In this document: piece by piece, positions 15,924 to 60,979 of the stretch
Layout of the letters: each line of letters starts with the position of its first letter
Position numbering within the stretch: the stretch's first letter is position 1
Source of the DNA: Candidatus Aminicenantes bacterium
GTDB taxonomy: Bacteria; Acidobacteriota; Aminicenantia; JAMOAD01
Direction: 5' to 3'
DNA: 64,000 nucleotides
NCBI GenBank assembly: GCA_027061995.1
Contig: JAMOUT010000100.1
Coordinates: forward strand, 2,211 to 66,210
Notes under the pieces: model-generated
Told to the model about the DNA's origin: nothing
Database searches by the model: none
What the model saw: the letters and a program-made list of their open reading frames with translations, nothing else
Position numbers and translations under genes: made by a program

Positions 15924-15928
15924 GGGAT

Positions 15929-15957
15929 AATATATCATTTCATTTAAACAGTTTCAA
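15929..15957 (-). promoter_or_regulatory. Sigma70-like promoter abutting the ATG of the GT-C-like gene (predicted leaderless mRNA)
   Basis: On the minus strand: TTGAAA (15957-15952), N17, TATATT (15934-15929), 5 nt (ATCCC), then ATG (15923-15921). Confidence 0.45.
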
Positions 15958-35191: not shown

Positions 35192-35200
35192 TTTTTAAAT

Positions 35201-35285
35201 GGGGACTGGCAATACACGCTTACGAACCTCGTCAGGCCTGAGAAGGAGCAGCGATAAGTAAGAGGGTGTATGTGTCAGTATCCCC
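35201..35285 (+). ncRNA. ffs: Small (4.5S-type) bacterial signal recognition particle RNA
   Basis: GUCAGGCCUGAGAAGGAGCAGC matches the conserved domain IV (E. coli GUCAGGUCCGGAAGGAAGCAGC) with a GNRA (GAGA) tetraloop. The 5' GGGGACUGGCAAUACAC pairs with the 3' GUGUAUGUGUCAGUAUCCCC to close a long hairpin. It sits in the classic position upstream of dnaX. Confidence 0.85.
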
Positions 35286-35295
35286 TTAATAGAAA

Positions 35296-40378: not shown

Positions 40379-40904
40379 ATTATGGGAAGACTTTTTAAAT
40401 TCTCAAAAAGAAAATACGGACAAAGGTTGTCAATTAATAGTTTCATCTTTAAAAAAGGGGAACAAACTACTTATAGCGGGCAATGGAGGAAGTTCGGCTC
40501 AAGCTTCCCATTTTGTAGCGGAAATTCTCGGGAGATTTGAGAAAAACATAGTTCCTTATCCCGCGGTAAGTTTAAGCGGCGATATCTCCACAATAACGGC
40601 TTTATCAAATGATTTCGGATATGAGAATATCTTTTCTTACCAAATCGAGGGATTAGGCAAAGAGGAAGATGTTTTTATAGGACTCAGCACAAGCGGAAAA
40701 TCAAAAAATATTATAAAAGCGCTGGAAAAAGCAAAGGAAAAAAAACTATATACAATTGCTCTTATCGGAAATGATTCAACCGCTTTAGAGGGGTTAAGCG
40801 ATATTATTATAAAGGTTCCCTCCTCAAGAACCGCAAGAATTCAGGAGCTTCATCTGTATGTTTTACACAGTTTTGCGGAAGCGGTTGACAGAGAATTAAG
40901 ATAA
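40362..40904 (+). CDS. gmhA: SIS-domain phosphoheptose isomerase (GmhA/DiaA family)
   Basis: LLIAGNGGSSAQASHFVAEILGRF, ALSNDFGYENIFSYQIE, FIGLSTSGKSKNI and ARIQELHLYVLH. Confidence 0.85.
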   Translation: MKEIIELWEDFLNSQKENTDKGCQLIVSSLKKGNKLLIAGNGGSSAQASHFVAEILGRFEKNIVPYPAVSLSGDISTITALSNDFGYENIFSYQIEGLGKEEDVFIGLSTSGKSKNIIKALEKAKEKKLYTIALIGNDSTALEGLSDIIIKVPSSRTARIQELHLYVLHSFAEAVDRELR

Positions 40905-43331
40905 ATTATCTTTTAATAACACCTTGAACTTGATTATATGTGAAGGGATATATTCTTTCATTATTAATTTAAATAGTTTATAAGGGTTGAAAGCTTTAGT
41001 AGGGTCATAGTTAAAATAAAAAAGAAAGATATCATCTTTAAAATCGAGTCTGTCAAACTCTTTAATATCAGCATGATTGATAATCTCTTTAAAATCATCC
41101 TTAAGATACTGTTTTCCTATCTTAAAACCTATGGCTTTTGTTAATTTTGAAAATTTTAAACTATTATCCGGTAATAGTATTGCTCTATTAAAGGATAATC
41201 CTTTTATCGAGACTTTATTCAGCTCCTTTAATAATTCATTATTAAAAAGCTTTCGCGAACGAATTTCAAAAACATCCTCTTCAAGAAATGCACCGAGAGG
41301 GTCCGAGTATAAAAAAGAGATTTTTATTTTAGGGTGATATCCTTGAGTAAATTCAAATTCCAAAGGGCTTCTCCTGATAATCCTTTCTATTACCCGAGAT
41401 ATCTCTATCCCCGAAAGAAAATTTGCGGGGAAAGTTTTACTGTAAAATATTAAATAGCGATATATTTTTCCCTCCTTTATCTCATCAACCGATTCAAGAT
41501 TAGGAATTGTAGTATCTTCGTGTTGATTTCTTATAATATTATTAACAGGGAATATACAACCTTTACACTCTGCACAATCTCTTTCAATACATGACTCTGT
41601 TCTTAATGCTTTTTTACTTTTTAAAAATTCTTCCAAAAGGAAACCGCTTTTTATCCCTGTGTCAATAACCTGAAAATGTAAAGGGGTGGCAATATCAATC
41701 TTATCCAAGAATATATCAGGGTCAATTTTGCTTTCTCTTATAGCTTTTTCCCAAGCATTAAAATCCAATTCATTGTCCCAAGCATCAAATCGTGCCCCTG
41801 ATTGAAAGGCTCTGTAAATTATATCAGAAACTCTGATATCCCCTCTTGAAAGCAATGATTCAAGATAAGCTGTTTTATAGGAATGAAATTTCAGAAAAAT
41901 CTCCTTTCTGTTTCTTATCTTATCAAGAATATAATTTTGCTTTTCTTGTATTTCCTTCTCTTTGGAAAAGCCGCACCATTGAAAAGGGGTGTGCGGTTTG
42001 GGAATAAATGTTGATATTGTAACGGAAATCCTTAACTTTCGTTTATATTTTCTCCCCAAGTTAGATGTTTTAATAAGTATATCGATTATACCGTCAATAT
42101 CCTCCATTGTTTCCGAGGGCAAGCCTATCATAAAATAGAATTTTATTGTTCTCCATCCGTAATTGTATGCAAGCTCCAATGAGTTAAATATCTCTTCGTC
42201 TGTTACATATTTATTGATAACTTTTCTTAATCTTTCTGTTCCTGCTTCGGGAACTATCGTGAATCCTGTTTTTCTAACTTTCTTAATTATCTCAAGCATT
42301 ATCTTTTTTATCTTGGTTGGTCTTAGAGAGGGTAAACCGATAGCGATTCTTTTATTTTTCAGATGATTAAAAATTGAAACCATTATTTTTTCCAAGAAAG
42401 GGTAATCGGCGGTGCTAAGTGAAGATAGGGAAAAATCCTCGAATCCGGTTGTTTGTGCTGTTCTTATAATATAATCTATCAGATAGTCGGGGTTTCTCCA
42501 CCTGAAAGGGTGATAAACAAATGAAGCCTGGCAGAATCTACATTTTTGAGGACAGCCTCTCGCAATCTCCACACTTAACCTATCAAAAACTATCTCCGTG
42601 TTAGGAACAATAGGATTTTCGGGAAGGGGATATTTATCAAGATTTTTAACATACCCTTTTTTAACTATTAATCTTTTATTTTTATCATAAGGGATTAAAA
42701 ATTTCCCCTCTTTTTTTCTATCATAATATTTAGGGATATAAACCCCTTTTTCCTCCGAAAGTGACTTTATAATCTCCTCTCTTTTAAACTTTTTCTCTTT
42801 TTTTCTCTTTATTTTTTCCAAAATATTGAAAAAATTCGCTTCCGCATCTCCTATATAAAAAACATCGATAAAAGGGGCAATCGGTTCAGGATTGAAAACA
42901 TTTACACCTCCGGCAAAAACTATCGGGTCATCTTCCGCTCTTTCTTTTGAGAAAACAGGTATATCAGAGAGTTCAAGTATATTCAAAAGATTTGTATAAT
43001 CAAGCTCGGAAAGAAGGGAAAAACCCAGGATATCAAATTCTTTAATTGGTTTTTTACTTTCAATAGAAAAAAGGGGAATATGATTTTTTCTTAATTTAAG
43101 CTCCAAATCTTTTGCGGGTGAAAAAACCCTTTCAGCGAGAATTCCCTGTATTGAATTTATGTAATGATACAATATTGGAATCCCCATATGAGACATCCCT
43201 ATTTCGTATAAATCGGGATAAGATAAAACGACTTTTAAAACTGTATTGTTCCAATTTTTAATTATGGAGTTTAATTCACCACCAAGGTATCTTGAAGGTT
43301 TTTCCAAATCTTGAAAAAAAGAGAGTTCCAT
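40896..43331 (-). CDS. Radical SAM protein (B12-binding-like N-domain + radical SAM core) fused to a DUF2344-type C-terminal domain
   Basis: N-terminus KPSRYLGGELNS. CxxxCxxC cluster ARGCPQKCRFCQASF. C-terminal FTQGYHPKIKISF is typical of the radical-SAM-linked DUF2344 family. Confidence 0.8.
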   Translation of the reverse strand: MELSFFQDLEKPSRYLGGELNSIIKNWNNTVLKVVLSYPDLYEIGMSHMGIPILYHYINSIQGILAERVFSPAKDLELKLRKNHIPLFSIESKKPIKEFDILGFSLLSELDYTNLLNILELSDIPVFSKERAEDDPIVFAGGVNVFNPEPIAPFIDVFYIGDAEANFFNILEKIKRKKEKKFKREEIIKSLSEEKGVYIPKYYDRKKEGKFLIPYDKNKRLIVKKGYVKNLDKYPLPENPIVPNTEIVFDRLSVEIARGCPQKCRFCQASFVYHPFRWRNPDYLIDYIIRTAQTTGFEDFSLSSLSTADYPFLEKIMVSIFNHLKNKRIAIGLPSLRPTKIKKIMLEIIKKVRKTGFTIVPEAGTERLRKVINKYVTDEEIFNSLELAYNYGWRTIKFYFMIGLPSETMEDIDGIIDILIKTSNLGRKYKRKLRISVTISTFIPKPHTPFQWCGFSKEKEIQEKQNYILDKIRNRKEIFLKFHSYKTAYLESLLSRGDIRVSDIIYRAFQSGARFDAWDNELDFNAWEKAIRESKIDPDIFLDKIDIATPLHFQVIDTGIKSGFLLEEFLKSKKALRTESCIERDCAECKGCIFPVNNIIRNQHEDTTIPNLESVDEIKEGKIYRYLIFYSKTFPANFLSGIEISRVIERIIRRSPLEFEFTQGYHPKIKISFLYSDPLGAFLEEDVFEIRSRKLFNNELLKELNKVSIKGLSFNRAILLPDNSLKFSKLTKAIGFKIGKQYLKDDFKEIINHADIKEFDRLDFKDDIFLFYFNYDPTKAFNPYKLFKLIMKEYIPSHIIKFKVLLKDNLS

Positions 43332-43333
43332 AT

Positions 43334-44419
43334 CTAACTCTTGATAAATCTGGAAAGATATACATTTTCCACGAGGCCAAGTAAAGAAAATATGGTGATA
43401 ATAGAGGAACCTCCGTAACTAAAAAGGGGAAAAGTTATTCCTGCAACAGGGAATTTACCTATACATACAAGAACATTAATTAAGAAATGAAAAAACAGAG
43501 TTCCCAAAACTAACCCTGATAACATAATATTTTCTATGGTTTCCGATGTAACTCCGATTTTATATATGATATAAAAAAGATACAAAAACAGCCATAGAAC
43601 AAAAGTGACACCGACAAACCCGAATTCCTCCGCAAAGACGGATAAAATAAAATCAGTGTGTTGTGCGGGCAAAAATCCCAACTTTTTCTGAGTTCCTTTC
43701 AAATATCCCTTACCTTTAAATCCTCCCGAGCCAATTGTGATTTTTGATTGTAGGGTATGATAACCATATCCGAGAGGGTCTTGTTCAGGGTGTAAAAAAT
43801 TGATTATCCTTTTTTTATGGTAATCCTTGAGAACATAATTCCAAGATACAACTGATAAAATTATGGCGAGAAATATAAAAAGTATAGCCAAATTTTTTTT
43901 AAGTCCGAATATTATTAAAAAAGTTAATATTATAAAGCCATATGTTAATACGGTCCCGAAATCTGGTTGTAAAAAAATCAAAAAGACGGGAATTCCCACA
44001 ATAACCGATATTTTAATAAAATCCATAAAATCAATGGGACCCTCAAAATGTTTCCTGAAAATTTTTACTATCATAAGAATAACAAATATTTTTCCTATTT
44101 CAGACGGCTGAATACCGAAGCCACCTATTTTTAACCATGATTTTGCTCCCGATACTTTTTCACCAAAGAAGATTAAATATATTAGTGAAATAATAATGAT
44201 GGAGTAAAACGGAGTGGAGAGATTAAGAAGTTTTTCCAAATTAATTACCGAGAAAAACAGAAAACAGATAGTGGCGAAAAACAGGAAAAAAAGTTGTTTT
44301 TCATAGAAAAAAGAGCCATTTGTTTTATGAATGGAATAAAGCGTGAGAATTCCGATTAATGATATGAGAAACGGAATAAAAAAAAGCTGATAATTAAAAT
44401 ACTTTACGAGATTTTTCAT
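43334..44419 (-). CDS. rodA: Rod shape-determining SEDS glycosyltransferase RodA
   Basis: FtsW/RodA/SpoVE family motifs (IQPSEIGKI, LQPDFGT, LPAQHTDFILSVFAEEFGF, PLFSYGGSS). Lies in the mre/mrdA operon. Confidence 0.92.
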   Translation of the reverse strand: MKNLVKYFNYQLFFIPFLISLIGILTLYSIHKTNGSFFYEKQLFFLFFATICFLFFSVINLEKLLNLSTPFYSIIIISLIYLIFFGEKVSGAKSWLKIGGFGIQPSEIGKIFVILMIVKIFRKHFEGPIDFMDFIKISVIVGIPVFLIFLQPDFGTVLTYGFIILTFLIIFGLKKNLAILFIFLAIILSVVSWNYVLKDYHKKRIINFLHPEQDPLGYGYHTLQSKITIGSGGFKGKGYLKGTQKKLGFLPAQHTDFILSVFAEEFGFVGVTFVLWLFLYLFYIIYKIGVTSETIENIMLSGLVLGTLFFHFLINVLVCIGKFPVAGITFPLFSYGGSSIITIFSLLGLVENVYLSRFIKS

Positions 44420-46233
44420 CTTAAATCCTTAAAATACATCTTTATTATTTTTCCTGCTATCGGTGCCGCAATCTCGCCACCGCCACCACTGTGTTCAATC
44501 ATTACAACCACAACAATCTCGGGGTTCTTTCTCGGAGCAAAAGCACCGAACCATGCATGATTACTCCATCTTTTTTCTTTTTTATTTTTTACCTTTGACT
44601 TTAGTGTTTCTTTACTAATAACTTGGACGGTGCTTGTTTTACCACATATATCAATTCCTTGGACCTGTGCAAGTTTCCCCGTTCCTTTCTCACCGTTTAC
44701 AACCCTCCACATCCCTTTAATGATTTTTTCAAAATTTTGTTTTTTTATAGGAACTTTTTTCATCTTATATTTTGGAAAAATCTTTTTTTTATCATTATTA
44801 TAATATTTTAGAAGGTGCGGGGTGATATAATAACCTCTGTTGGCTATTATTGAAAACATTTGCGCTATTTGCAACGGGGTAACCAAAATAGGTCCCTGCC
44901 CGATTGATACGGATATTGTTTCTCCCGGAAACCATATCAGATTATATATTTTTTTCTTCCATGTTCTTGAAGGAACAAGACCACTCTTCTCTCCAACAAG
45001 ATCAATTCCTGTTTTTTCTCCCAATCCCATCATTGTCGCATAATGTTTTATTACATCTATTTTCAATGATTTTCCGAGCATATAAAAATATACATCGCAA
45101 GATTGTTCTATCGCCGATATTAAATTCATAGGACCATGTCCGCTTGTCTTCCAGCAATGAAAAATCTTTTTGTATATCTCTTTATAGCCATAACAATTGA
45201 CAATGGATCTTTCACTAATCAACCTCTCCTCAAGACCTGCAAGTCCCACGACAAGTTTAAAAATAGAACCGGGAGAATAAAGCCCTTTTATCGTTTTATT
45301 TATTAAAGGCTTACCCTCTTTATTTATAAGAGCCTCCCATTCTTGTTGAGAGAAATAGGATGTGAAAATATTGGGATTAAAAAGAGGGGTTGAAACAAGG
45401 GACAAGATCTCACCGTTTTTCGGATTTAAAACAATCACGGAACCGATTCTCTTTTCATCAATCAAAAGTTTTTCTATTTTTCTCTGAAGAGTGGAATCAA
45501 TTGTTAAATTAAGTGTATATCCCTGTTTCGGGGGAATACTTTTGATGATTTTATTTAAAACACCGCGGCTGTTTACCACCTGTATTCTCTCCCCTTTTTC
45601 ACCTTTAATTAATTTTTCATAATATTTTTCAATCCCGGTTTTTCCTACGAAATCTCCTATGTTCAAATTATATTTTCTTATCTCTTTTTGATTAGCTTCC
45701 CCTACATAACCTATGAAACTTGAACCGGTTTCTCCTAATACATATAATCTTCTCGGTGAAATCCTTAGGGAGATATTGTTAAATTCCTCTTGATTAGAAT
45801 AAAAATAATTTACATCTTTAAAAGAAAGATCTTCGTCGGACAGATAATATGTTCCGAAGTTTCTTAATGAATTGATTGTTTTATTCTTTTTATTGTATAT
45901 ATTTAAAAATTTTTTTAGTTGCTTTATAGTCCTTATTTTTCGTTTTCCCATCAGATTTTCCCTTGGGATTATGAGATCAAAGGATAATCTGTTATCAGCA
46001 ATAATATTTCCTTCTCTGTCTTTTATCAAGCCTCTTAACGGAGTTAGCTTTTCTATCTTTTTTATGTTTCTTGTTGAAAGTCCTGAATAATAATCGTATT
46101 TGACGATTTGAATCTTACCGAAAAAAAGCAACAGAATGGTAAAAGTAAATATTATAAAAAGGAAAAAAATTTTAATATTTCTTTTCCTTTTCAAAAGATA
46201 AAGTCTTTTTCTATATACTGTTTTTTCAAACAT
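44416..46233 (-). CDS. mrdA: Penicillin-binding protein 2 (elongasome transpeptidase)
   Basis: N-terminal TM anchor and PBP dimerisation region. Transpeptidase SxxK (PGSIFKL). Later CGKTST and HAWFGAFAP motifs. Confidence 0.9.
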   Translation of the reverse strand: MFEKTVYRKRLYLLKRKRNIKIFFLFIIFTFTILLLFFGKIQIVKYDYYSGLSTRNIKKIEKLTPLRGLIKDREGNIIADNRLSFDLIIPRENLMGKRKIRTIKQLKKFLNIYNKKNKTINSLRNFGTYYLSDEDLSFKDVNYFYSNQEEFNNISLRISPRRLYVLGETGSSFIGYVGEANQKEIRKYNLNIGDFVGKTGIEKYYEKLIKGEKGERIQVVNSRGVLNKIIKSIPPKQGYTLNLTIDSTLQRKIEKLLIDEKRIGSVIVLNPKNGEILSLVSTPLFNPNIFTSYFSQQEWEALINKEGKPLINKTIKGLYSPGSIFKLVVGLAGLEERLISERSIVNCYGYKEIYKKIFHCWKTSGHGPMNLISAIEQSCDVYFYMLGKSLKIDVIKHYATMMGLGEKTGIDLVGEKSGLVPSRTWKKKIYNLIWFPGETISVSIGQGPILVTPLQIAQMFSIIANRGYYITPHLLKYYNNDKKKIFPKYKMKKVPIKKQNFEKIIKGMWRVVNGEKGTGKLAQVQGIDICGKTSTVQVISKETLKSKVKNKKEKRWSNHAWFGAFAPRKNPEIVVVVMIEHSGGGGEIAAPIAGKIIKMYFKDLR

Positions 46234-48519: not shown

Positions 48520-49443
48520 TTATTCTTCCTCCTCATAACATTCTACCCCGTCTTTGCCCCTTTTTTTTACTTTATACATAGCCTTGTCCGCTTTAGAAAT
48601 AAGTTCTTCAACTTCATTAGAATCATCAGGGAAAGTTGAAATTCCCAAACTTGCGGTTATTTTTATATTCAAATTTTCATTTTTCAAAAATTCGAATGAT
48701 TTTATTTTTTTTCTTATTCTCTCCGCTATCACTTTTGTCTCTTTCTTTCTTGCTCCGAAAATAATTATAAGAAATTCATCTCCACCGAATCTACCGACAA
48801 TATCGGAATTCCTCGTATTTTTTCGCAGTAATCTTCCCACTTCCATAAGAAGTTTACCCCCGTAAAGATGACCGTAAGTATCATTTACTTTTTTCAGCCC
48901 GTCAAGATCAAGGAAAATTATGGAAAAGAAAGTATTGTATCTAAGCGCCCTTTCACTCTCTTTTTTCAAATATTCCCTGAGATATCTATTGTTGTAGAGT
49001 CCCGTAAATTCATCATGAAAAGACAATTTTCTAACTCTGTGTAATTTTATGAAATACAAAAACACATTTTTTACAAAAAGTTGCATCCTTTTTTCTTTTT
49101 CTTCGGTTAACCGTTTGTCTGTTCCTATCAGTATCCATCCGCTAATGGAATCTTGTTCCGATTCAAAACAAAAAGTGTATTCGAATCCGTTTTTGGTTTG
49201 CATTACCGAGTCTTTTGCAGGTAATAATAATTTATCCTGATGTTCTATCTCTTGCAGATATTTATCTGCGAACCTATATTCGCTTACTTTTTCCTGAGAT
49301 AAAAGAAATAGTATTATTGATTTTAATGAAAATCGTTCTTTTAAAATAATCATCAACATCTCAATAAGTTTTTTTAAATCATCCTCTATGTTTATGTTTT
49401 GGATAAGTTCATAGAAAGTTTCCAATTCTATTATTTTACTCAT
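48520..49443 (-). CDS. Diguanylate cyclase (GGDEF) with an N-terminal GAF-like sensor region
   Basis: DEFTGLYNNRYL, LDLDGLKKVNDTYGH, RNSD (RxxD I-site) five residues before GGDEF (RFGGDEFLII). The stop directly abuts the mreB ATG. Confidence 0.9.
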   Translation of the reverse strand: MSKIIELETFYELIQNINIEDDLKKLIEMLMIILKERFSLKSIILFLLSQEKVSEYRFADKYLQEIEHQDKLLLPAKDSVMQTKNGFEYTFCFESEQDSISGWILIGTDKRLTEEKEKRMQLFVKNVFLYFIKLHRVRKLSFHDEFTGLYNNRYLREYLKKESERALRYNTFFSIIFLDLDGLKKVNDTYGHLYGGKLLMEVGRLLRKNTRNSDIVGRFGGDEFLIIIFGARKKETKVIAERIRKKIKSFEFLKNENLNIKITASLGISTFPDDSNEVEELISKADKAMYKVKKRGKDGVECYEEEE

Positions 49444-50576
49444 TTCTCATAAATTATTACTTTTCGCATCAATCTTGTTTCAGCTCCCGATAAGTTTTTG
49501 GATATGATTATTATGTCGTGCTCTCCGATTGTTTTAAAACTTATTATATGCATAAAATTACCATTCGGATCAACGGTAACATGTTCCCCGTTTATTGTTA
49601 ATTTAACTCCCAAATCTGTTCTTCCTTTTATTATTAAAAGATTTCCGGTTGGGACAAGAGGTCCATTTAATGTTAGGTTAGGCGGGTTTTTCCATAATTG
49701 TAGAATCTGAATGAGATTCTTTATATAAAATCTGTTTGTCTTAGATAAGACCCCCGTAATCCCGTTTTTGTCTATGCTTGATACTCTCCAATAAACAGGA
49801 GAGTTCTTAAAATTAGTTATATTCAAAATGAAAAAATTTGTTTGTGTTTGATAGATTTTTTCTCCCGCAAAAACACTATTGTAAGCGATATGAATAGAGT
49901 ATCCCCTTGCATTGTTAACTTTATCCCATTTGAATAAAAGGTTTGAGCCATCCTCTATCCCTATGTTTTTTAAATCATCGGGAATCAGATTAACGGGAGC
50001 CGGAAGAAGTTTGATTGCAGTAATCTTTTTGTCTTTACTTATGTTATAATAGTAATCGGGTTGTAACAGTGTTTTTTCCCCCGAGGGCTCCGTTATCATC
50101 TTAACTCTACCATTATAATTCTTAAAAATAAGATATTCCCTGTTTCTATCTTTTATTACTTTTAATGAGGACTCACCGTTTATTAATAGTTTCCTCCTCA
50201 ACCATTTTACAGTGAATTTTTCATTATCGGTTTTTCTTGCAGCAAGCTCGCCGTCTATTAATTCAATGGAACTTGTATCATAGAAAATGATTTTTGCACT
50301 ATTTCTCAAACATAACTCTATCCCGTTTTGTAAAATTGCAAGTCCTCCCCCGTTGTCAATGGTTTCAATAATATCCCCCTTTGTGATTTTACGAGGAAGA
50401 ACACGAACTTTTTGTCCATTAACCAAAACTTCCCCGAAAACAGAGATTAAATAGGGGGAATCAGGATAATTTTTCATATTATTGATTTTTTGTTTGAAAA
50501 ATATTCCTGAAAAAGCAATGAATACGATGGTTAAAAAAAAACTTGTAAGTAAAAAGAGATTAATCCGCTTTTTCAT
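49440..50576 (-). CDS. Membrane-anchored FecR-domain protein with Ig/FN3-like C-terminal modules
   Basis: N-terminal TM helix. FecR-like segment (GDIIETIDNGGGLAILQNGIELCLRNSAKIIF...IELIDGELAA). FN3-like unit (LLFKWDKVNNARGYSIHIA...VYWRVSSIDKNG). Overlaps the GGDEF gene by 4 nt. Confidence 0.6.
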   Translation of the reverse strand: MKKRINLFLLTSFFLTIVFIAFSGIFFKQKINNMKNYPDSPYLISVFGEVLVNGQKVRVLPRKITKGDIIETIDNGGGLAILQNGIELCLRNSAKIIFYDTSSIELIDGELAARKTDNEKFTVKWLRRKLLINGESSLKVIKDRNREYLIFKNYNGRVKMITEPSGEKTLLQPDYYYNISKDKKITAIKLLPAPVNLIPDDLKNIGIEDGSNLLFKWDKVNNARGYSIHIAYNSVFAGEKIYQTQTNFFILNITNFKNSPVYWRVSSIDKNGITGVLSKTNRFYIKNLIQILQLWKNPPNLTLNGPLVPTGNLLIIKGRTDLGVKLTINGEHVTVDPNGNFMHIISFKTIGEHDIIIISKNLSGAETRLMRKVIIYEK

Positions 50577-51987: not shown

Positions 51988-53154
51988 CTATACTTTAATG
52001 TCAAGAGAAGAGTTTTCCGTTCCGAACCCTTCTTCAAAAAAATCGGTTAACTCTTTTTTGGAATATCTGAAATCAAAAAACAGATTATCAAAGTATCCCA
52101 ATATCTTTTTTTCAAGTTGCTCTTTATTTGTTTTTAAAATTTCCAATGTTTTCTCACTTTCCGAAACAAAATCAACCCTTAAAATTTTGCCCACTTTTTT
52201 AAGCTCTATTTTTATCTTGCCGAGTTTACTCATATTAAGCAGTAGTGAAACTGTTTTAAGCTTATAAGATTTTGACTTTTTACCCTTTTCATACTCCATT
52301 TTAAGATAATCGGGAGTGATTTTATTCTCCATGAACATGGGAACAATAAAGCTGACTAATGATAAATTCTGATTAACAATTCCATGCTCTTTAACCGATA
52401 TATTATGATTTTTTATATTTTCAGCCGCTTTAAAAAAATCGGTCAGAACTTTTTTTATCTGATCACTTCCTTTGTCGGTTTTTATCGATTCTAATATTCT
52501 GTTTTTGATAGATTCCATATCACTGTTTTGCTCTTTTATAATCTCTTTTAACCTGTTTTGTTGAGATTTAATCAATTCTTCCATTCGGTTAAACAGCTCG
52601 GGTTCAGGCAGATTTTCACTACCATGGGATATAAAGAATTTTAATATTTTACCTATTGCGGATTCTTTTACATCCTTGGTAAACATTGAGATATTTTGCT
52701 CCAATACTTTAACAATATCAGGATTATTAAGTTTTATTAAGAGCTCCTTTATAATACTGTTTTTAATATCTTCAGAGATTTTATTATTATTCAATAATTC
52801 GGTTAATTCTTTAAACACCGATTCAATCTTTGAAACCAATTCCCGATTTTTAATAACTATTTTACCTATCTCCACCTCGGTTTTATCCCCTGTTATATTT
52901 TGCTCAAGCTCGAACTTAATATTTTCTCCCACCTCTTTTACCGTAAGATTCAATTCCTCTCCTTCATTAACGGCAAATTTTATATTAGCTTTCATCCTAA
53001 AACCTTTAAAATCAAGAAGATACTCTTGCCCCTCTTTTCCGATCACCTTGGCTCTGACACTTTCCCCCACCCTTAAAGCTTTCATGTTCATTATAGTCTT
53101 TTCCAACTCGGAAAAACGGACTTTAAGTTCATAAGGGATATCTTTTATAATCAT
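51988..53154 (-). CDS. Hypothetical protein with a FliK-like (Flg_hook) C-terminal domain
   Basis: The C-terminus VSLLLNMSKLGKIKIELKKVGKILRVDFVSESEKTLEILKTNKEQLEKKI fits the hook-length-control C-domain pattern (L.L.P..LG.v.v.l....g.l.v.f........l......L). The N-terminus GESVRAKVIGKEGQEYLLDFKGFRMKA is also seen in FliK-like proteins. Confidence 0.55.
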   Translation of the reverse strand: MIIKDIPYELKVRFSELEKTIMNMKALRVGESVRAKVIGKEGQEYLLDFKGFRMKANIKFAVNEGEELNLTVKEVGENIKFELEQNITGDKTEVEIGKIVIKNRELVSKIESVFKELTELLNNNKISEDIKNSIIKELLIKLNNPDIVKVLEQNISMFTKDVKESAIGKILKFFISHGSENLPEPELFNRMEELIKSQQNRLKEIIKEQNSDMESIKNRILESIKTDKGSDQIKKVLTDFFKAAENIKNHNISVKEHGIVNQNLSLVSFIVPMFMENKITPDYLKMEYEKGKKSKSYKLKTVSLLLNMSKLGKIKIELKKVGKILRVDFVSESEKTLEILKTNKEQLEKKILGYFDNLFFDFRYSKKELTDFFEEGFGTENSSLDIKV

Positions 53155-54834: not shown

Positions 54835-54863
54835 TTGACTGTTTAATGGTTTTAATATATACT
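54835..54863 (+). promoter_or_regulatory. Sigma70-like promoter abutting the ATG of the GWxTD gene (predicted leaderless mRNA)
   Basis: TTGACT (54835-40), N17, TATACT (54858-63), 6 nt, then ATG at 54870. The track's start at 54846 falls inside this promoter. Confidence 0.5.
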
Positions 54864-54869
54864 TTTTTG

Positions 54870-56999
54870 ATGAAGAAAAGAATACTTATCATGGTTTTAT
54901 TAGTTTTTGTGTTTTCACTGTTTTCTTCCGTCCCTTTAACCGCAAAGAAGAAAGAAAAAGAGATATCCACGAAAGAACTTATAAAAAGATTACCTGACAA
55001 ATACAAAAAATGGCTTGATCTAGTTTATTATATTATAACACCCGTGGAAAAAAAGGTTTTTCTTCAATTGAAAAACAATAGGGACAGGGAAGTTTTTATA
55101 AAACTTTTTTGGAAACAAAGAGATCCGACCCCCGGAACTCCTGAAAATGAATTTAAAGAGGAACATATAAAAAGATTTAAGTATGCCAATAAACATTTTA
55201 AAACAACAAGACCCGGTTGGATGACTGATATGGGAAAAATCTATATAATTCTCGGTCCACCTAATACACATAATAATTATGATAATAAATACGGGTTATA
55301 TCCTCTGAAAATATGGGGATATTACGGGGACAAGAACCTCGGTCTTCCATCCTATTTTAGAGTGATGTTTTATAAGAGAGACGGAATAGGTGAATATATA
55401 ATATATGACCCCGCTTTTGATGGTCCCGCAGCTCTTTTAAGAGATTCTCAAGGGGTGGATTTGACAAATATAATGTCTATTTACAGAAGATTAAAAGAGG
55501 TTGCACCTACGATAGCAAAAGCAGCTCTTTCACTTATTCCGGGGGAAGAATCTTTTATTTCTCTTCCGACAACAAGAAGCACTGTTCTATTAAGTAAGAT
55601 TTTTGAAATTCCGAAAAGGAGAATAAAAGTTAATTATGCAAGACAATTTCTTGATTTTAAGGGATTGGTAAATGTGGATTATTCGATGAATTATATAGAG
55701 AACGACTTCTTTTACACTTTTGCCAATGATCCTGATACAGGGTTGAATTTTATCCATTTTTCAATAAAACCTCATAGAATTTCGGTGGGATATTCAAACG
55801 AAAAGGATAAATATTTTTTTGCATTTAAACTTGATGTAAGTTTAAAAAAAGATAATATAATTATCTATCATTATTCAAAAAATTACTCTTTTTATTTTAC
55901 GGAAAAACAATTGAATGAAAGGGTAAAACCTCTCGGTATTGCAGTTAACGATATGTTCCCCGTTGTTCCGGGAAATTATAAACTGGTTGTTTTATTACAG
56001 AATTCCGTAAAAAAAGAGTTTACCTATATTGAAAAAAAAATAAAGGTTTTGCCTACAAAAGGAACCCCTTATATTATAGGGCCTATCCCGACATATAAAA
56101 GCGAAAGACTGGGTTTTGATTTAGTCTATAGACCTTTTAAATTCGGTAAATATATTATAAATGTGGAGCCAAAAGGATTTTTCTCCCTTTCGGATAATAT
56201 TATGCTTTTTACCGGTGCGGGAAATCTTAATAATATAAAAGATGGGGAGTTAAAAGTTGTGGTAAAAACAAGGGAAGGTTATTCCGAATATTTTAAAGAA
56301 TACAGTTTTAAAATACCTGAAAACAGTAAATCTTTTTATAAAATAATATATCTCGGCAAGGAGTTACCGACAGCTGTTTTTGATGTTGATGTTCGATTAT
56401 ACAGATCCGGCATTCCTATTTATGTTAAAGAGGGGCATTTTACAATTTCACCTCTCGGAGGAGTTCCTCATCCTATGGAAGCATTCAAAGTTATGGACAA
56501 AAAGAACAAGGCTGTAAATTATTATAGAATTGCCAATGAATATGAGAAACTTGGTTTAATGAAAGAAGCGGAGAATTATTATGCAAAGGGATATAATCTT
56601 AATAAATCTTTTGTAGAGGGAATTCTAAGATATGCGAAAATGCTTTTTAGATTAAATAAATATGATAAGGTTCTCTCTGTTATTGAATCTTTTAAAGACA
56701 ATAAAAAGTATCGGTTTGAGTATTTTTCTCTGAAAGGAGAAGCTCTTTTTAATAAACAACAGTATGAAGAGGCACTTAAATCTTTATTAGCGGCTAATAA
56801 AATTTATGATAGTGATTACCATGTGATAAATCTTCTCGGGCTAACTTTCCTCAGGCTTAATGAAATGGAGCAAGCTCTTAAAGCTTTTAAAGCTTCTCTT
56901 AGTATAAACAGGGAACAATCAGAAGTAAAAAATCTGATAAAAAAGATAGAAAAAATTAAACAAAAACAAAATAAAATAGCAGCGAAAAAGGAAAAATAG
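54870..56999 (+). CDS. Secreted GWxTD-domain protein with C-terminal TPR repeats
   Basis: Signal peptide MKKRILIMVLLVFVFSLFSS. FWKQRDPTPGTPENEFKEEHIKRFKYANKHF...RPGWMTDMGKIYIILGPP (GWxTD at nt 55215-55229). TPR-like helices near the C-terminus (ANEYEKLGLMKEAENYYAKGY...). Confidence 0.8.
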   Translation: MKKRILIMVLLVFVFSLFSSVPLTAKKKEKEISTKELIKRLPDKYKKWLDLVYYIITPVEKKVFLQLKNNRDREVFIKLFWKQRDPTPGTPENEFKEEHIKRFKYANKHFKTTRPGWMTDMGKIYIILGPPNTHNNYDNKYGLYPLKIWGYYGDKNLGLPSYFRVMFYKRDGIGEYIIYDPAFDGPAALLRDSQGVDLTNIMSIYRRLKEVAPTIAKAALSLIPGEESFISLPTTRSTVLLSKIFEIPKRRIKVNYARQFLDFKGLVNVDYSMNYIENDFFYTFANDPDTGLNFIHFSIKPHRISVGYSNEKDKYFFAFKLDVSLKKDNIIIYHYSKNYSFYFTEKQLNERVKPLGIAVNDMFPVVPGNYKLVVLLQNSVKKEFTYIEKKIKVLPTKGTPYIIGPIPTYKSERLGFDLVYRPFKFGKYIINVEPKGFFSLSDNIMLFTGAGNLNNIKDGELKVVVKTREGYSEYFKEYSFKIPENSKSFYKIIYLGKELPTAVFDVDVRLYRSGIPIYVKEGHFTISPLGGVPHPMEAFKVMDKKNKAVNYYRIANEYEKLGLMKEAENYYAKGYNLNKSFVEGILRYAKMLFRLNKYDKVLSVIESFKDNKKYRFEYFSLKGEALFNKQQYEEALKSLLAANKIYDSDYHVINLLGLTFLRLNEMEQALKAFKASLSINREQSEVKNLIKKIEKIKQKQNKIAAKKEK

Positions 57000-57026
57000 T
57001 TTTATTTATAATATTATTATGTATCT

Positions 57027-57047
57027 CTTTATTATAGTATAATAAAG
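57027..57047. repeat. Perfect AT-rich palindrome CTTTATTATA-G-TATAATAAAG
   Basis: Read directly from the sequence. It lies between the GWxTD stop (56999) and the next promoter. It could be a weak hairpin/terminator or an operator. Confidence 0.85.
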
Positions 57048-57051
57048 GTGA

Positions 57052-57080
57052 TTGACAAATATTATTATTAGTTCTATCAT
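57052..57080 (+). promoter_or_regulatory. Sigma70-like promoter abutting the ATG of the TPR lipoprotein gene (predicted leaderless mRNA)
   Basis: TTGACA (57052-57), N17, TATCAT (57075-80), 5 nt, then ATG at 57086. No SD. Confidence 0.45.
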
Positions 57081-57085
57081 AAACC

Positions 57086-57490
57086 ATGAAGAATAAAATA
57101 ATAATTATCATTCTATTTATTGTTTTTTTCTCTTTTTGTTCAAACAACAGGTTTTCAATAATGGAAAATAGTGGTTATAAGTTAAAAATTAACAAAAAAC
57201 TCGGCTCATATGCTCAAAAACAAAGCCTTTGGAAGGAAGCTATATTCAGATGGAAAAATGTTATAAAATTGAATCCTGAAAACTTTAAAGCCCATAATAA
57301 TCTTGCGGTTGCTTATGAAGCGATAGGAGATTATAAAAAAGCTGAAAAAGAGTATGAAATAGCTTTGAAATTACAGAACAATAGTTATGTAAGAAAAAAT
57401 TATGAAGATTTTAAGTCTATGCTCAAAAACAAGAATAATAAAAAATTAAAGAGGGGAAAGAATGGGAGAAAGTCTGAAAAACAATTATAA
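57086..57490 (+). CDS. Small TPR-repeat protein, probable lipoprotein
   Basis: Signal sequence ending FSFC. One or two TPR units (AHNNLAVAYEAIGDYKKAEKEYEIALKL). Basic C-terminal tail. Confidence 0.65.
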   Translation: MKNKIIIIILFIVFFSFCSNNRFSIMENSGYKLKINKKLGSYAQKQSLWKEAIFRWKNVIKLNPENFKAHNNLAVAYEAIGDYKKAEKEYEIALKLQNNSYVRKNYEDFKSMLKNKNNKKLKRGKNGRKSEKQL

Positions 57491-58118
57491 ATTTCCATTA
57501 ATAATCATCATACTTTTTTTTCTTGCCTCCTGTTCCGAAGCAACTTATCAAAGAATATGGACAATGAGAAAACCACCCGTTGATATTATGAAGTTTGATA
57601 CAATATATATATCCAATTTCAAAATAGTATCTGACATTGATAAAAATTTATTAAATAAAACCATAACCAGAATAATAAAAGATGAAGTATCAATATATCA
57701 CAAAGACAATCTTTTTACGGGAGAAACGGTTAATTTATCGGAAAAAGGGATTTTTAACAATTATCTGTTTTGGAGAGAGTATGCTCCTTCGAGCGATATA
57801 ATAATAACAGGAGAAATCAATCTTGATAAAAAAGAGAGAGAACAAATCGTCAGCGAAAGGGAAACAGTTTTATCCTTTAAAAAAGTTAATCGATTAAAAA
57901 CAGTGAAAATTGTTATAACCACGATTAATTTTTATATTATAAACGGAAAAACAGGAAAAATTATTTACAAATATAAATTTCATAATAAAATAATAAATAA
58001 TCAAAATGATAGTGACATCGTTATCCTTAATAGGATTTGTAGTATAGCTGTTGAAAGATTATTAAATAGAATTGTCCGTAGGGAGCGGATAAGTTACAGA
58101 TATCTTTTTAATTATTAA
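57462..58118 (+). CDS. Hypothetical lipoprotein
   Basis: Canonical lipobox LASC after a hydrophobic stretch. No recognisable domain. Overlaps the upstream gene by 29 nt and ends 11 nt before the next gene. Confidence 0.6.
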   Translation: MGESLKNNYKFPLIIIILFFLASCSEATYQRIWTMRKPPVDIMKFDTIYISNFKIVSDIDKNLLNKTITRIIKDEVSIYHKDNLFTGETVNLSEKGIFNNYLFWREYAPSSDIIITGEINLDKKEREQIVSERETVLSFKKVNRLKTVKIVITTINFYIINGKTGKIIYKYKFHNKIINNQNDSDIVILNRICSIAVERLLNRIVRRERISYRYLFNY

Positions 58119-58129
58119 AGAGGGAAAAA

Positions 58130-60979
58130 ATGAATAAAAAGCCGAATATAAAAACATTGATAGTCATTATGATTATAGTTATATTCTACGGAGGAACTGC
58201 TTTTTCACAGTTTTTGCCTTATTATGGAAAGAATAAGGTGCATACAGGGAAAAAATGGTTTGTATATGAAACAGATCATTTCAAAATTAATTTTTATACT
58301 AAAAACAGAAGAATTTTGAATAATGCCTCTGTCTATGCCGAAGATGCATATAAAAAGATATCCGAGTTTTTGGGATATTCAATAGATCACAAGATTCCAC
58401 TTCTTCTTTATCAATCTCATAAGGATTTTGAGATGACAAATCTATACCCTTATCCTGTTCCCGAACCTGTAATGGGATTTTCAGAGCCGATGGGGGATAG
58501 AATTGTTATCCCTTCCGAATTTCCCGATCACTCTTTAAAGCATCTTATCACACATGAATTAACCCATATATTTCAATTTAATCTCCTTTATGGAAATCAT
58601 AGAATGAGCCTGAATTCTCTTACCCCCCTTCCATTATGGATAATGGAAGGGTTTGCGGAATATATTCCCGGTGATTGGGAGCCCGTATCCACAATGGTTG
58701 TCAGGGATGCTGTTATAACAAATAAAATCCCAGAATTAAATAAATTCGGAAACTTGGTTTATGGTAAAGGAAACTCAAGATCGCCCTATGATTTCGGCCA
58801 TCTTGTTTATGATTTTCTTGCCAAAGAATATGGTAAAACCGGGTTAAGAAAGTTTTGGTGGAATTTAAAAAGATTTTCTCTTTTCAGAGGAAGGAATATT
58901 ATGAAAGACACTTTTAATCTTGAATATCCTATGTTTAACAGTAAGTTTAAGAGATATTTAAGAAGAAGGTATAAGAAATATTTTTCAAAAAACATACCGG
59001 ATGATTATGGCTTGAAAATAAGTCCCGAATTTCCATATTCTCAAGTATTTTCTTATGATGTCTCTCCATCAATGGAAATTGCCGCTGTTGTAACTGTTAA
59101 TTACAGAAAATATGCCTTAACAATCTCTTTAATAAATTTAAAAACGGGAAAAATATTTAAAGATATCACCCCCGGATACAGTTCGAAATTCGAGCACCTT
59201 TACCTTAAATTTAATCCGGAAGAGGGAAAAAGTGTTATATGGGATAGAAAGGGGGAATTTATTGCATTTCTGGGAAGATACAACTATGATTATTATCTTA
59301 TCTTTTATTCTTCCATAGGAAAATTCCTCAGAAGGAAAAAATTAAAAGATTTAACTGACCCGACAGGACTTTCAATATCCCATGACAATAAATATATTGT
59401 ATTTACCGCTAATAAAAACGCTCAAAGGGATCTCTTTATATATGACATTAAGAGAAATAAAATATCAAAAATCACTAATGATGCCGAGTATGAGTATTCC
59501 CCCTCTTTTTCGAAAGATGGAAAAAATATTGTTTTTTCGCAAAAAAGAGGAAAGTATGATCAGCTATGTATATTGAATTTGTCCGATAAAAAGAAAAAAG
59601 AGATTACTCAAAATCCCACATACCATATTAACCCTGTGTTTCTTGACTCTAACAATATCCTATTTTCCTATTATACGGAAGAAGCGTATAATCTTGCAAC
59701 TATTAATTTGAAAACAAAACAAATTAAAATACTTACGGATGTTTCAACAGGAGTTTTTTACCCTAAGAAAATTAACAATAAACTTTTTTATCTCGGTTAT
59801 TCTGGGGGAGAGTTTAGTATCTTCAAATCCGATATTTTAAAACCGGTTAAAGAAAAAATCGAAACCGCTTATTATACCCCTGAAATAATAAAAGAAAACA
59901 TAAAAGAGTATAAAATCAGACCATATAAAAAATTTGAAGATATTGTTGTCAGTGGTTTACCGAGTATAGGTTTTGCGGTTGCAACCGATGGAACAACATA
60001 TGGTGGAGCTTATCTTAACTTTAGTGATACTTTGAATGATAACAGTGTTTCCTTTCTCGCATATTCCGTAATGGGTTTTAAAAATTATGAATTATCATAT
60101 CTAAACATTGGAAATAGATTGAATTATCAAATAAAACTATTTACAACAACCTATTTTTATTATCTTCCATTTCAATATTGGCAAGCACAGTATGAAGGGT
60201 ATTATTCCTACAAAGATGCAATAACAACAAGAAAAATGGAAGGGATATATATAAACGGAATCTATCCTTTAAATAAATTTCATCGTATATCATTATTTAC
60301 GGGATTACTTTACCAAAAAGAAAATTTATACTATTTCATGTATCCCGAAGATAAAAAAAGCCCTTTTTTCAATGGATACGAAGTTCCTCTTAATTTGTCT
60401 TTGACGGGAGAAACAACCCATTTTAGAAATTACGGGCCCTATGATGGTTATACCTATGATATCTCTTTTACAAAATATCTGAATTTAACGGGTAAAATGA
60501 GAAATGCTCAAGCAATTACAATTGATTTAAGGAAATATATCCCGATAGGATTTGATACACTGTTTGCATTCAGAGCTTACGGGGCGTTTAGTGGAGGGGA
60601 ATCCCCTTATATATTTTTCGGCGGGGGAAATAATGAAATCAGATCAACAAATTATTATAGTATGGTAGGTAATAATTTTTTTCATTTTAATGCGGAATTC
60701 AGGTTTCCCATTGTTCAAATAGCCTTAACTCCTCTCGGACTCATAGGGCCGGTAAGAGGTGTGTTTTTTGCTGATGCTGGAGGAGCTTGGTTTAATAATC
60801 AGAAGTTTGAGTTTATAGATAAAAACGATTGGAAATTGAAAAATGGTATAGGTTCAATCGGATACGGAATAGAATTTTCTCTCGGGGGTTATCCTCTGCA
60901 TATAGAGTGGGTTTATCAAACCGATTTTGCAAATTTTAATGATCATAAAGTCAGGTTTTGGATAGGTTTTGATTTTTAA
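58130..60979 (+). CDS. Outer-membrane fusion protein: HExxH metallopeptidase (MA-clan-like) + PD40/TolB-like repeats + Omp85-like C-terminal barrel (paralog of 6255..9014)
   Basis: Signal peptide. HELTH at nt 58553-58567, followed by WIMEGFAEY. PD40-like units (DLFIYDIKRNKISKITND.EYEYSPSFSKDGKNIVFS). Omp85-type C-terminus (FFGGGNNEIRSTNYY...FNAEFRFPI...GVFFADAGGAW...GYGIEF...RFWIGFDF). Confidence 0.7.
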   Translation: MNKKPNIKTLIVIMIIVIFYGGTAFSQFLPYYGKNKVHTGKKWFVYETDHFKINFYTKNRRILNNASVYAEDAYKKISEFLGYSIDHKIPLLLYQSHKDFEMTNLYPYPVPEPVMGFSEPMGDRIVIPSEFPDHSLKHLITHELTHIFQFNLLYGNHRMSLNSLTPLPLWIMEGFAEYIPGDWEPVSTMVVRDAVITNKIPELNKFGNLVYGKGNSRSPYDFGHLVYDFLAKEYGKTGLRKFWWNLKRFSLFRGRNIMKDTFNLEYPMFNSKFKRYLRRRYKKYFSKNIPDDYGLKISPEFPYSQVFSYDVSPSMEIAAVVTVNYRKYALTISLINLKTGKIFKDITPGYSSKFEHLYLKFNPEEGKSVIWDRKGEFIAFLGRYNYDYYLIFYSSIGKFLRRKKLKDLTDPTGLSISHDNKYIVFTANKNAQRDLFIYDIKRNKISKITNDAEYEYSPSFSKDGKNIVFSQKRGKYDQLCILNLSDKKKKEITQNPTYHINPVFLDSNNILFSYYTEEAYNLATINLKTKQIKILTDVSTGVFYPKKINNKLFYLGYSGGEFSIFKSDILKPVKEKIETAYYTPEIIKENIKEYKIRPYKKFEDIVVSGLPSIGFAVATDGTTYGGAYLNFSDTLNDNSVSFLAYSVMGFKNYELSYLNIGNRLNYQIKLFTTTYFYYLPFQYWQAQYEGYYSYKDAITTRKMEGIYINGIYPLNKFHRISLFTGLLYQKENLYYFMYPEDKKSPFFNGYEVPLNLSLTGETTHFRNYGPYDGYTYDISFTKYLNLTGKMRNAQAITIDLRKYIPIGFDTLFAFRAYGAFSGGESPYIFFGGGNNEIRSTNYYSMVGNNFFHFNAEFRFPIVQIALTPLGLIGPVRGVFFADAGGAWFNNQKFEFIDKNDWKLKNGIGSIGYGIEFSLGGYPLHIEWVYQTDFANFNDHKVRFWIGFDF

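Follow-up and report, generated by a model that had tools for sequence, protein, structure and literature searches.

Organization of the locus

A stretch of 64,000 nucleotides from a Candidatus Aminicenantes bacterium (assembly GCA_027061995.1, contig JAMOUT010000100.1, positions 2,211 to 66,210 of the forward strand), referred to below as the window, was analyzed for the genes that lie at positions 54,835 to 60,979. Four genes, named G1 to G4 here, occupy this region on the same strand. This report concerns the unit formed by G2, G3, and G4, which encode two lipoproteins and an outer-membrane protein ending in an Omp85-type barrel, and the relation of this trio to G1. The four genes are placed as follows.

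54870..56999, + strand: G1, 709 amino acids (aa), secreted protein with a GWxTD domain and C-terminal TPRs, from the open reading frame (ORF) list and hidden Markov model (HMM) matches
57086..57490, + strand: G2, 134 aa, small TPR outer-membrane lipoprotein
57462..58118, + strand: G3, 218 aa, lipoprotein with a LASC lipobox
58130..60979, + strand: G4, 949 aa, outer-membrane protein of the WD40/peptidase-Omp85 subfamily

Signal peptides and other export signals were assigned by eye. An 86-nucleotide (nt) gap separates G1 from G2, G2 and G3 overlap by 29 nt, and G3 and G4 are 11 nt apart. The ORF list confirms the four same-strand frames and this spacing, both given by an earlier sequence-only reading made by a model from the letters. 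The G1 start that it placed at 54835 is not a start codon. This position is a TTG with a stop codon three codons on, and is the first base of a promoter-like TTGACT hexamer; the longest ORF of G1 begins at 54846, and the 709-aa form begins at the ATG at 54870 (MKKRIL...). On both sides the block meets genes of the opposite strand: upstream lies RtcB, and downstream lie a gene for a GNAT acetyltransferase and one that is TldD/PmbA-like.

Conservation of the G2-G3-G4 trio

A protein search with G4 found 396 relatives, and nearly all of the best 120 belong to metagenome-assembled genomes of Aminicenantes or Acidobacteriota, where the name 'BamA/TamA family outer membrane protein' is frequent. When a single genome was scanned for each species, 285 relatives were obtained. 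The best 80 (L001-L080) were taken with 10-kb flanks, and the ORFs of these loci were searched with the window proteins and with an iterated HMM of G3. Together with individually gene-called neighborhoods, about 90 related loci were compared overall.

As seen in the species-representative loci, G2 lies directly upstream of G3-G4 in 76 of the 76 that have enough sequence, and the family HMM places G3 between G2 and G4 in 78 of 78, with G4 identity falling as low as 33%. The compact spacing is also kept, the gaps between G3 and G4 being mostly 9-15 nt and the G2/G3 overlaps mostly 4-14 nt. The genes flanking the trio, listed below for the upstream side, vary among the annotated loci. Because the three genes stay together in every locus with enough upstream sequence while the flanks differ, their adjacency is far beyond chance. 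In Aminicenantes (OP8; class Aminicenantia), G2-G3-G4 is seen to be an operon of three genes that is both conserved and autonomous.

L081, G4 88% identical: gene before G2 is G1 (order G1-G2-G3-G4)
L139, G4 81% identical: gene before G2 is a divergent thiamine-binding gene
L082, G4 66% identical: gene before G2 is a cation-efflux gene (8043-8948)
L140, G4 60% identical: gene before G2 is QueH
L141, G4 51% identical: gene before G2 is a chemoreceptor gene on the opposite strand
L142, G4 40% identical: gene before G2 is a phosphomethylpyrimidine-kinase-family gene
L143, L144, and L145 (G4 homologues P0040, P0064, and P0100), 37%, 38%, and 36% identity: unrelated genes before G2

An element resembling a promoter stands immediately before G2.

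57052..57080, + strand: promoter-like TTGACA-17-TATCAT, whose end lies 5 nt ahead of the G2 ATG

With 11 of 12 consensus matches, it is tied for best within 54-62 kb. The window, L081, and L139 share the segments ATTGACAAA and GTTCTATCAT without a single difference, amid flanking bases that diverge, and L139 retains both though it has no G1 upstream. Loci more distant than L081 and L139 gave no match to the element at the sequence level. The element is likely the trio's own promoter, giving a leaderless transcript or one with a very short leader. It is kept where G1 is absent, and the conserved unit is G2-G3-G4, probably with a promoter of its own.

On the downstream side, the trio lies directly upstream of dnaA in 4 of the 9 annotated contexts.

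L141, 8879-10183: dnaA after the trio
L142, 8892-10217: dnaA after the trio
L144, 9073-10425: dnaA after the trio
L145, 9340-10671: dnaA after the trio

dnaN then follows dnaA in L142, L144, and L145, and the trio of the dnaA loci likely adjoins the replication origin. This adjacency is taken as synteny, not function, and the position beside dnaA-dnaN represents a core-genome character of the trio. The copy in the window has moved, and GNAT and TldD genes lie downstream of it instead of dnaA.

Several neighbors occur in single loci. At L140 (5393-9029), genes for a 563-aa protein without a Pfam match, a TonB_C protein, ExbB, and ExbD come after the trio and share its strand. A TonB-ExbB-ExbD set downstream of G4 was found in only one of about ten annotated loci and is not conserved; considered beside two traits of G4, its TolB-like propeller and its conserved, disordered N-terminus, it hints at an energized partner. 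The cation-efflux gene directly before G2 is likewise confined to one Aminicenantes locus (L082) and is not conserved. In the plasmid collection, the sole relative is a 633-aa Salinibacter protein with a peptidase and a propeller and without the barrel, whose neighbors are unrelated to G3 or to the barrel; a zinc-transporter gene (L138, 4366-4992) precedes this barrel-less homologue. The cation-efflux and zinc-transporter neighbors may reflect a link to zinc supply or a coincidence.

Relation of G1 to the trio

G1 is a clear member of the GWxTD family, with matches above the curated cut-offs to TIGR04514 (112 bits, cut-off 28, E 1.4e-32) and PF20094 (45 bits, cut-off 26.9, E 1.1e-11). The family itself has no known function, and a full-text literature search for 'GWxTD' found no paper.

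Residues ~44-152, nt 54999-55325, + strand: GWxTD domain of G1 (TIGR04514, PF20094)
Residues ~538-700, nt 56481-56969, + strand: C-terminal TPRs of G1 (HMM matches)

The middle of G1, between these two parts, has no assigned domain. Only in the window and in L081 does G1 adjoin the trio, and L081 keeps the whole G1-G4 block though both of its flanks differ from those of the window. G1 is not adjacent in the loci where G4 identity is 81%, 66%, 60%, 51%, and 40% (L139, L082, and L140-L142), nor in L143-L145, and it stands next to G4 in none of the 80 species-representative loci. From the G1 side, the association was examined in 55 metagenomic loci with a G1 relative, some of these relatives being full-length orthologues of 31-43% identity. 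For this, degenerate DNA motifs of G4 were used: the N-terminal YYGKNK recovers 69 of 82 known G4 loci, and the C-terminal WxGFDF recovers 66 of the 82. The YYGKNK motif is present in none of the 55 loci. WxGFDF is found in L134 only, where a G4-like gene ends about 7.9 kb upstream of the GWxTD gene. In 4 of the 80 loci, and in L134 as well, about 8 kb separate G4 from a short GWxTD gene.

L023, L056, L064, and L079, at ~20.8-21.8 kb or 13.0-14.0 kb: GWxTD genes
L083, 7881-8774 and 8909-10990: GWxTD pair
L098, 7917-9980 and 9977-10987: GWxTD pair

In L083 and L098 the orthologue of G1 adjoins a short (297-336 aa) GWxTD paralogue. Sulfatase-TPR and CarboxypepD_reg-TPR proteins, an S9 peptidase, and a TonB-dependent-receptor-like barrel protein bearing a CarboxypepD_reg domain are also near these genes, and L091 has the same run as L083, as judged from ORF sizes alone. 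GWxTD genes occur paired, a long (~690-aa, TPR-tailed) form beside the short form; the window has the long form only, with one RDPTP motif.

As a member of the trio, G1 is rejected from both sides, by the 80 G4 loci without adjacency and by the 55 G1 loci without the N-terminal motif of G4. It is a recently juxtaposed, lineage-specific upstream neighbor outside the conserved module, and read-through from G1 into the trio may occur in the genome of the window. The sequence-only reading had proposed a four-gene module and had made it depend on conservation in related genomes, where the G1 link is not conserved; its envelope module of an Omp85-type barrel with lipoproteins is supported for G2-G3-G4. 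A false lead is thereby removed, since the function-unknown GWxTD family is unconnected to the trio and is here a mere neighbor of it.

Domains and motifs of G4

The AlphaFold2 model of G4 (predicted local distance difference test score, pLDDT, 79.2; predicted template-modeling score, pTM, 0.75) contains a mixed alpha/beta domain, 24 strands in six groups of four, and about 16 long C-terminal strands. Alignments of G4 covered 18 sequences, and 13 family members down to 22% identity. The features can be divided as follows.

Residues 1-26, + strand: signal peptide, by eye
Residues 27-37, nt 58208-58240, + strand: mature N-terminus QF-LPYYGKNKV, nearly invariant
Residues ~38-295, nt 58241..59014, + strand: predicted zinc-peptidase domain of the MA clan (gluzincin type)
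Residues 142-146, nt 58553-58567, + strand: HELTH (HExxH)
nt 58643-58663, + strand: MEGFAEY, with putative third zinc ligand E173
Residues ~296-578, nt 59015..59863, + strand: six-bladed TolB/Tricorn-like beta-propeller
Residues ~606-949, nt 59945..60976, + strand: Omp85-type barrel, ~16 strands
Residues ~831-839, nt 60623-60646, + strand: loop-6 motif GGGNNEIRS

At the mature N-terminus, the whole family shares the GKNK(V) motif, to which the Aminicenantes clade alone adds the PYY prefix. The GKNKV segment has a pLDDT below 50 in the model and is probably a binding epitope.

The peptidase domain of the window protein matches Peptidase_MA_2 with 22 bits (E 1.6e-4), below the cut-off of 32.4, and a flagellinolysin HExxH model with E 1.5e-7. 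Among the 18 homologues, 9 match Peptidase_MA_2 (best E 4e-7) and 3 match Peptidase_M9 (collagenase). A sequence comparison of this domain with PDB gave noise only and no relative. H142, E143, H146, E173, G174, and E177 are invariant in the 18-sequence alignment and in the 13 family members, and in the model the helices 133-154 and 169-178 bear the HExxH and EGxxE residues. The zinc-peptidase signature HExxH...E is intact and is that of a gluzincin (MA(E)), from which activity is predicted.

For the propeller, PD40 is matched with 32 bits (cut-off 20.9) and recurs in all 18 homologues. The TolB model TIGR02800 matches with E 7e-16, a sequence profile finds TolB in PDB with E 4e-23, and Tricorn_N and Tricorn_2nd are among the precomputed Pfam matches of G4 homologues.

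The barrel passes the Omp85 model PF01103 narrowly, with 25.0 bits against a cut-off of 24, and 5 of the 18 homologues match at E < 0.01. A Foldseek search of the G4 model against PDB places BamA barrels first (E 4e-11 to 1e-9; template-modeling score, TM, ~0.6 normalized to the barrel), with TolB interleaved. The Pfam scan gave no POTRA (PF07244) match in G4, and the linker between propeller and barrel has only about 45 residues in the model. The barrel carries an FxDxG-like motif (FADAG) and a C-terminal Phe; R838, D882, and G946 are invariant in the 13-member alignment, and F949 is nearly invariant. The loop-6 Arg motif, the FxDxG-like motif, and the C-terminal Phe are what we take, from the BamA and FhaC literature, to be Omp85 hallmarks. 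Family-wide features are GKNK(V), HExxH/EGxxE, the loop-6 Arg, the FxDxG-like motif, and the C-terminal Phe. Loop 6 reads IRS(T/A) in the Aminicenantes clade in place of the canonical (V/L)RG(Y/F), while distant members keep LRGY; the barrel may behave differently from BamA. The change to IRS and the partners G2 and G3 occur together.

The domain calls of the sequence-only reading are supported by the HMM matches and, for the weak calls in G4, by the alignments, homologues, and model described above. In the profile check that it had suggested, GWxTD (112 and 45 bits) and Omp85 (25.0 against 24) pass, and Peptidase_MA_2 (22 against 32.4) fails.

The lipoproteins G2 and G3

nt 57137-57139, + strand: lipobox Cys18 of G2 (FSFC, atypical at position -1)
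nt 57531-57533, + strand: Cys24 of the G3 lipobox LASC, Cys invariant in 30 of 30 homologues

By its signal peptide ending in a lipobox Cys, a residue found in 16 of 17 homologues, G2 is identified as a bacterial lipoprotein. Its mature form of about 115 aa has about two TPR motifs (TPR_2, 39.5 bits, E 3.9e-10) and a Lys-rich tail, and W49, E51, A52, N71, and N72 are invariant in the 17 homologues. The best NCBIfam likenesses, all far below cut-off, are to PilW, Tgl, and GltE, which are TPR lipoproteins of the outer membrane; the NCBIfam matches listed for G2 include no BamD model.

G3 has no match in Pfam or NCBIfam, in agreement with the earlier description of a canonical LASC lipobox without a recognizable domain. 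Word-indexed searches gave 4 and 11 G3 proteins, and the family was recovered through an HMM built on the ORFs of the loci. Outside its own genus, homologues are 14-26% identical to the window protein and keep an ITG motif, two Arg residues, and a C-terminal RYLL motif. The AlphaFold2 model of G3 (pLDDT 78.7) is to be read with caution, as it comes from a 9-sequence alignment. Its Foldseek matches are FlgT, HpaA, PelC, CsgG, LptE, and GNA1162 (E 1e-7 to 1e-4, TM 0.3-0.7), and an alpha/beta lipoprotein fold of the LptE/PelC/CsgG/FlgT type is predicted. Proteins with an alpha/beta fold of the LptE/PelC/CsgG type are outer-membrane lipoproteins that sit in or beneath barrels and rings.

G4 and the WD40-like Omp85 subfamily

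A 'WD40-like' subfamily of Omp85 proteins was described by Heinz and Lithgow (2014, Front Microbiol 5:370; PMC4104836), with the architectures PF01103 + PF07676/PF00930 in Table S2. For each of about 100 members, Table S3 of that work gives Phyre2 matches of three kinds: BamA/TamA, TolB, and either an M1 aminopeptidase or a collagenase peptidase domain. A 2024 paper (PMC11358297) sums up the class as having 'divergent WD40 and peptidase domains'. Aminicenantes are not covered in PMC4104836, and no accessory genes are reported there. G4 has the same three domains, the same Pfam signature, and no POTRA, and is a member of this subfamily by barrel, propeller, and peptidase alike. By their accessions, members of the subfamily belong to Bacteroidetes, Rhodothermus/Salinibacter, Ignavibacteria, Myxococcales, Gemmatimonas, and others.

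The three-domain architecture of G4 as an undescribed feature is therefore ruled out. The sequence-only reading had seen an undescribed system, and this stands in so far as no experimentally described machine matches the trio; the peptidase/propeller/Omp85 fusion was already catalogued in 2014 (PMC4104836). A literature search found no experimental or functional study of the WD40/peptidase-Omp85 subfamily. A profile search of 1.84 billion cluster representatives gave 2,567 proteins (clusters) at E <= 1e-30, and most of the best 150 matches span the whole profile (920-1090 aa).

The G4 clade differs from the described subfamily in its two dedicated lipoprotein genes, the PYY extension, and IRS for RG(Y/F). 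What is new is the strict tie of G4 to the two lipoproteins in the Aminicenantes clade, together with the predicted fold of G3, the clade-specific changes in G4 (PYY prefix and loop-6 IRS), and the existence of three distant family members as stand-alone genes.

Other features of the window

Large ORFs (at least 180 aa) lie mostly on the + strand from ~18 kb to 40.9 kb and then on the - strand to 54.6 kb, and the cumulative GC skew peaks at ~42 kb. The strand switch at ~40.9 kb looks like a point of convergence or a terminus, or simply an operon boundary. The 388-aa protein at 51988-53154, between RtcB and an amidohydrolase, matches Flg_hook (FliK domain) with 35 bits against a cut-off of 29.8, with no other flagellar gene beside it. 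For five large ORFs (378-919 aa), Pfam gives no family at E <= 1e-5.

284-2326, - strand: ORF without Pfam family
6255-9014, + strand: ORF without Pfam family
13788-15938, - strand: ORF without Pfam family
18204-21677: DNA polymerase III alpha
23726-26266: S9/DPP-IV peptidase
28822-31137, + strand: ORF without Pfam family
32006-35077: Sortilin/BNR protein
35198-35291, + strand: bacterial small signal recognition particle RNA (RF00169, 61.5 bits)
40896-43331: radical SAM protein
44416-46233: PBP2-type transpeptidase
49440-50576, - strand: ORF without Pfam family
51988-53154, - strand: Flg_hook protein

Comparison with known systems

The trio can be compared with the β-barrel assembly machinery (BAM), since an Omp85 barrel, a TPR lipoprotein, a small alpha/beta lipoprotein, and a beta-propeller are present in both. 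BamA has five POTRA domains, whereas G4 has none. BamB, a separate protein, has eight blades; the propeller of G4 is TolB-like, has six blades, and is fused. G2 with its small mature form is far smaller than the essential BamD with about five repeats. Additionally, G4 adds a zinc peptidase. At the place of the BAM loop-6 motif (V/I)RG(F/Y), R838 is invariant, and the sequence reads IRS(T/A) in the Aminicenantes clade and LRGY in distant members.

The sequence-only reading had also pointed to TAM (translocation and assembly module) and to accessory modules of the type IX secretion system (T9SS), and neither likeness holds. TamA has three POTRA domains and an adjacent TamB (DUF490) gene; G4 lacks the former, and the latter is missing from the annotated neighborhoods. 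The trio has no recognizable Por/Spr/Gld component of the T9SS beyond a weak, TPR-only match of G2 to PorE (18 bits against a cut-off of 600).

PlpD, of type Vd, also places an enzyme N-terminal to a 16-stranded Omp85 barrel. PlpD is a surface-exported patatin lipase with one POTRA, whereas G4 has a peptidase and a propeller without POTRA. LptD-LptE and PelB-PelC resemble the trio in pairing a barrel with a lipoprotein of the LptE/PelC fold, as predicted for G3, and PelB also has TPRs. However, LptD has 26 strands, PelB has 16 strands and is not an Omp85 protein, no sequence similarity exists, and the cargo is lipopolysaccharide or polysaccharide, not protein. Tricorn with factor F3 (an M1 aminopeptidase), DPP-IV, and prolyl oligopeptidases couple a propeller to a peptidase so that access is limited to unfolded peptides. 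Unlike G4, Tricorn, DPP-IV, and prolyl oligopeptidases are cytosolic or soluble, of serine type, and not membrane-anchored.

Proposed function and alternatives

With modest confidence, the trio is regarded as encoding a barrel-anchored, propeller-gated zinc peptidase complex with two lipoproteins, which would face the periplasm and clear unfolded envelope proteins or peptides. G2, G3, and G4 would form one outer-membrane complex, in which the 16-stranded barrel would anchor the enzyme in the outer membrane. The peptidase and propeller probably face the periplasm, by analogy to the domains at the N-terminus of other Omp85 proteins. Those domains are periplasmic in BamA, TamA, and FhaC, and this is the sole basis of the orientation given to G4. 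As in Tricorn, DPP-IV, and prolyl oligopeptidase, the propeller may let only unfolded chains or oligopeptides reach the active site. The lipoproteins would act as assembly or stabilizing partners of the barrel in the Aminicenantes clade, G2 as a scaffold similar to BamD or PilW and G3 as a partner similar to LptE or PelC, at or under the barrel. The task of such a complex is likely the trimming or clearing of unfolded envelope proteins and peptides at the inner face of the outer membrane, a role that fits the core-genome character of the trio, which adjoins dnaA-dnaN in four of nine annotated contexts.

Several points weigh against this proposal. For the window G4 itself, the Peptidase_MA_2 and Omp85 scores are marginal, and loop 6 of the clade departs from the canonical motif. 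The model of G3 comes from few sequences, with structural matches of modest TM. The distant members P0255, P0177, and P0207 (22-26% identity) stand alone, with no TPR or G3-like gene upstream, and because three such members have no G2 or G3 alongside, the lipoproteins are not essential to the basic function of the family. Moreover, in PlpD an N-terminal enzyme on an Omp85 barrel is exported to the cell surface.

In the main rival, which is type Vd-like, the barrel would send its own peptidase and propeller to the surface, where external proteins or peptides would be digested for a peptide-fermenting organism, with G2 and G3 assembling or gating the barrel. This is considered unlikely. It has in its favor the PlpD-like order of enzyme and barrel (discussed in PMC4104836) and the abundance of secreted peptidases in the window and related loci, such as the S9 peptidase at 23726-26266 and an S46 peptidase in L081. 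The naming of the phylum for predicted amino-acid use is also consistent with it. However, PlpD and TpsB proteins have one or two POTRA domains where G4 has none, a 550-residue passenger including a closed six-bladed propeller would need to be unfolded for the crossing, propellers of the TolB type typically reside in the periplasm, G4 shows no recognizable motif for cleavage or release, and the trio holds a core-genome position beside dnaA. More doubtful still is a paralogue of the BAM/TAM insertases serving special clients, in which the propeller would replace BamB, G2 would replace BamD, and the peptidase would be an add-on for proof-reading or processing. The TPR lipoprotein resembling BamD, the small alpha/beta lipoprotein G3, the BamA matches of the barrel, and the retained loop-6 Arg and FxDxG-like motif are all compatible with an insertase; the lack of POTRA domains, IRS in place of RG(Y/F) in the Aminicenantes clade, the lack of a BamD model among the listed matches of G2, about two TPRs against five in BamD, the lack of a TamB/DUF490 gene in the annotated neighborhoods, and the distant members without lipoproteins speak against it.

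Two further explanations are very improbable. One retains G1 as a subunit or substrate-handling partner of G2-G3-G4, on the strength of its same-strand position 86 nt upstream, with no terminator-like site in the gap and opposite-strand genes on both sides of the block, of the block kept in L081 despite different flanks, and of the short GWxTD genes some 8 kb from G4 in five loci (4 of the 80, plus L134). The comparison of loci largely refutes it: G1 is missing from 81% identity downward and adjoins G4 in 0 of 80 loci, 0 of 55 G1-relative loci carry the N-terminal motif of G4, G1 orthologues sit instead with short GWxTD paralogues, sulfatase-TPR proteins, a TonB-dependent-receptor-like barrel, and an S9 peptidase, and G2 has its own conserved promoter-like element. 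The other takes the peptidase-like domain as catalytically dead, merely binding peptides, lipoprotein tails, or peptidoglycan stems in a structural tether similar to TolB-Pal. The TolB-like propeller, the Pfam peptidase score below threshold, and the TonB-ExbB-ExbD genes downstream of G4 in one locus would suit such a scaffold. Invariance of the three predicted zinc ligands and the catalytic Glu in 13 members down to 22% identity would be unexpected for a dead enzyme, and the TonB neighborhood occurs in only one of about ten annotated loci.

A more specific form of degradation, 'BAM in reverse', is speculative and improbable as it stands. Here, the lateral gate of the lipoprotein-assisted barrel would extract or capture misassembled outer-membrane proteins, or thread surface proteins inward, and feed them via the propeller to the fused zinc peptidase.

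Outer-membrane biogenesis depends centrally on Omp85 proteins, and the fusion of an Omp85 barrel to an apparently active protease presents a functional question. The strictly conserved pair of lipoproteins in Aminicenantes offers a concrete hypothesis, that of a three-protein complex. If 'BAM in reverse' were true, the trio would represent a dedicated outer-membrane protein-degradation machine, of a type not described in any bacterium.

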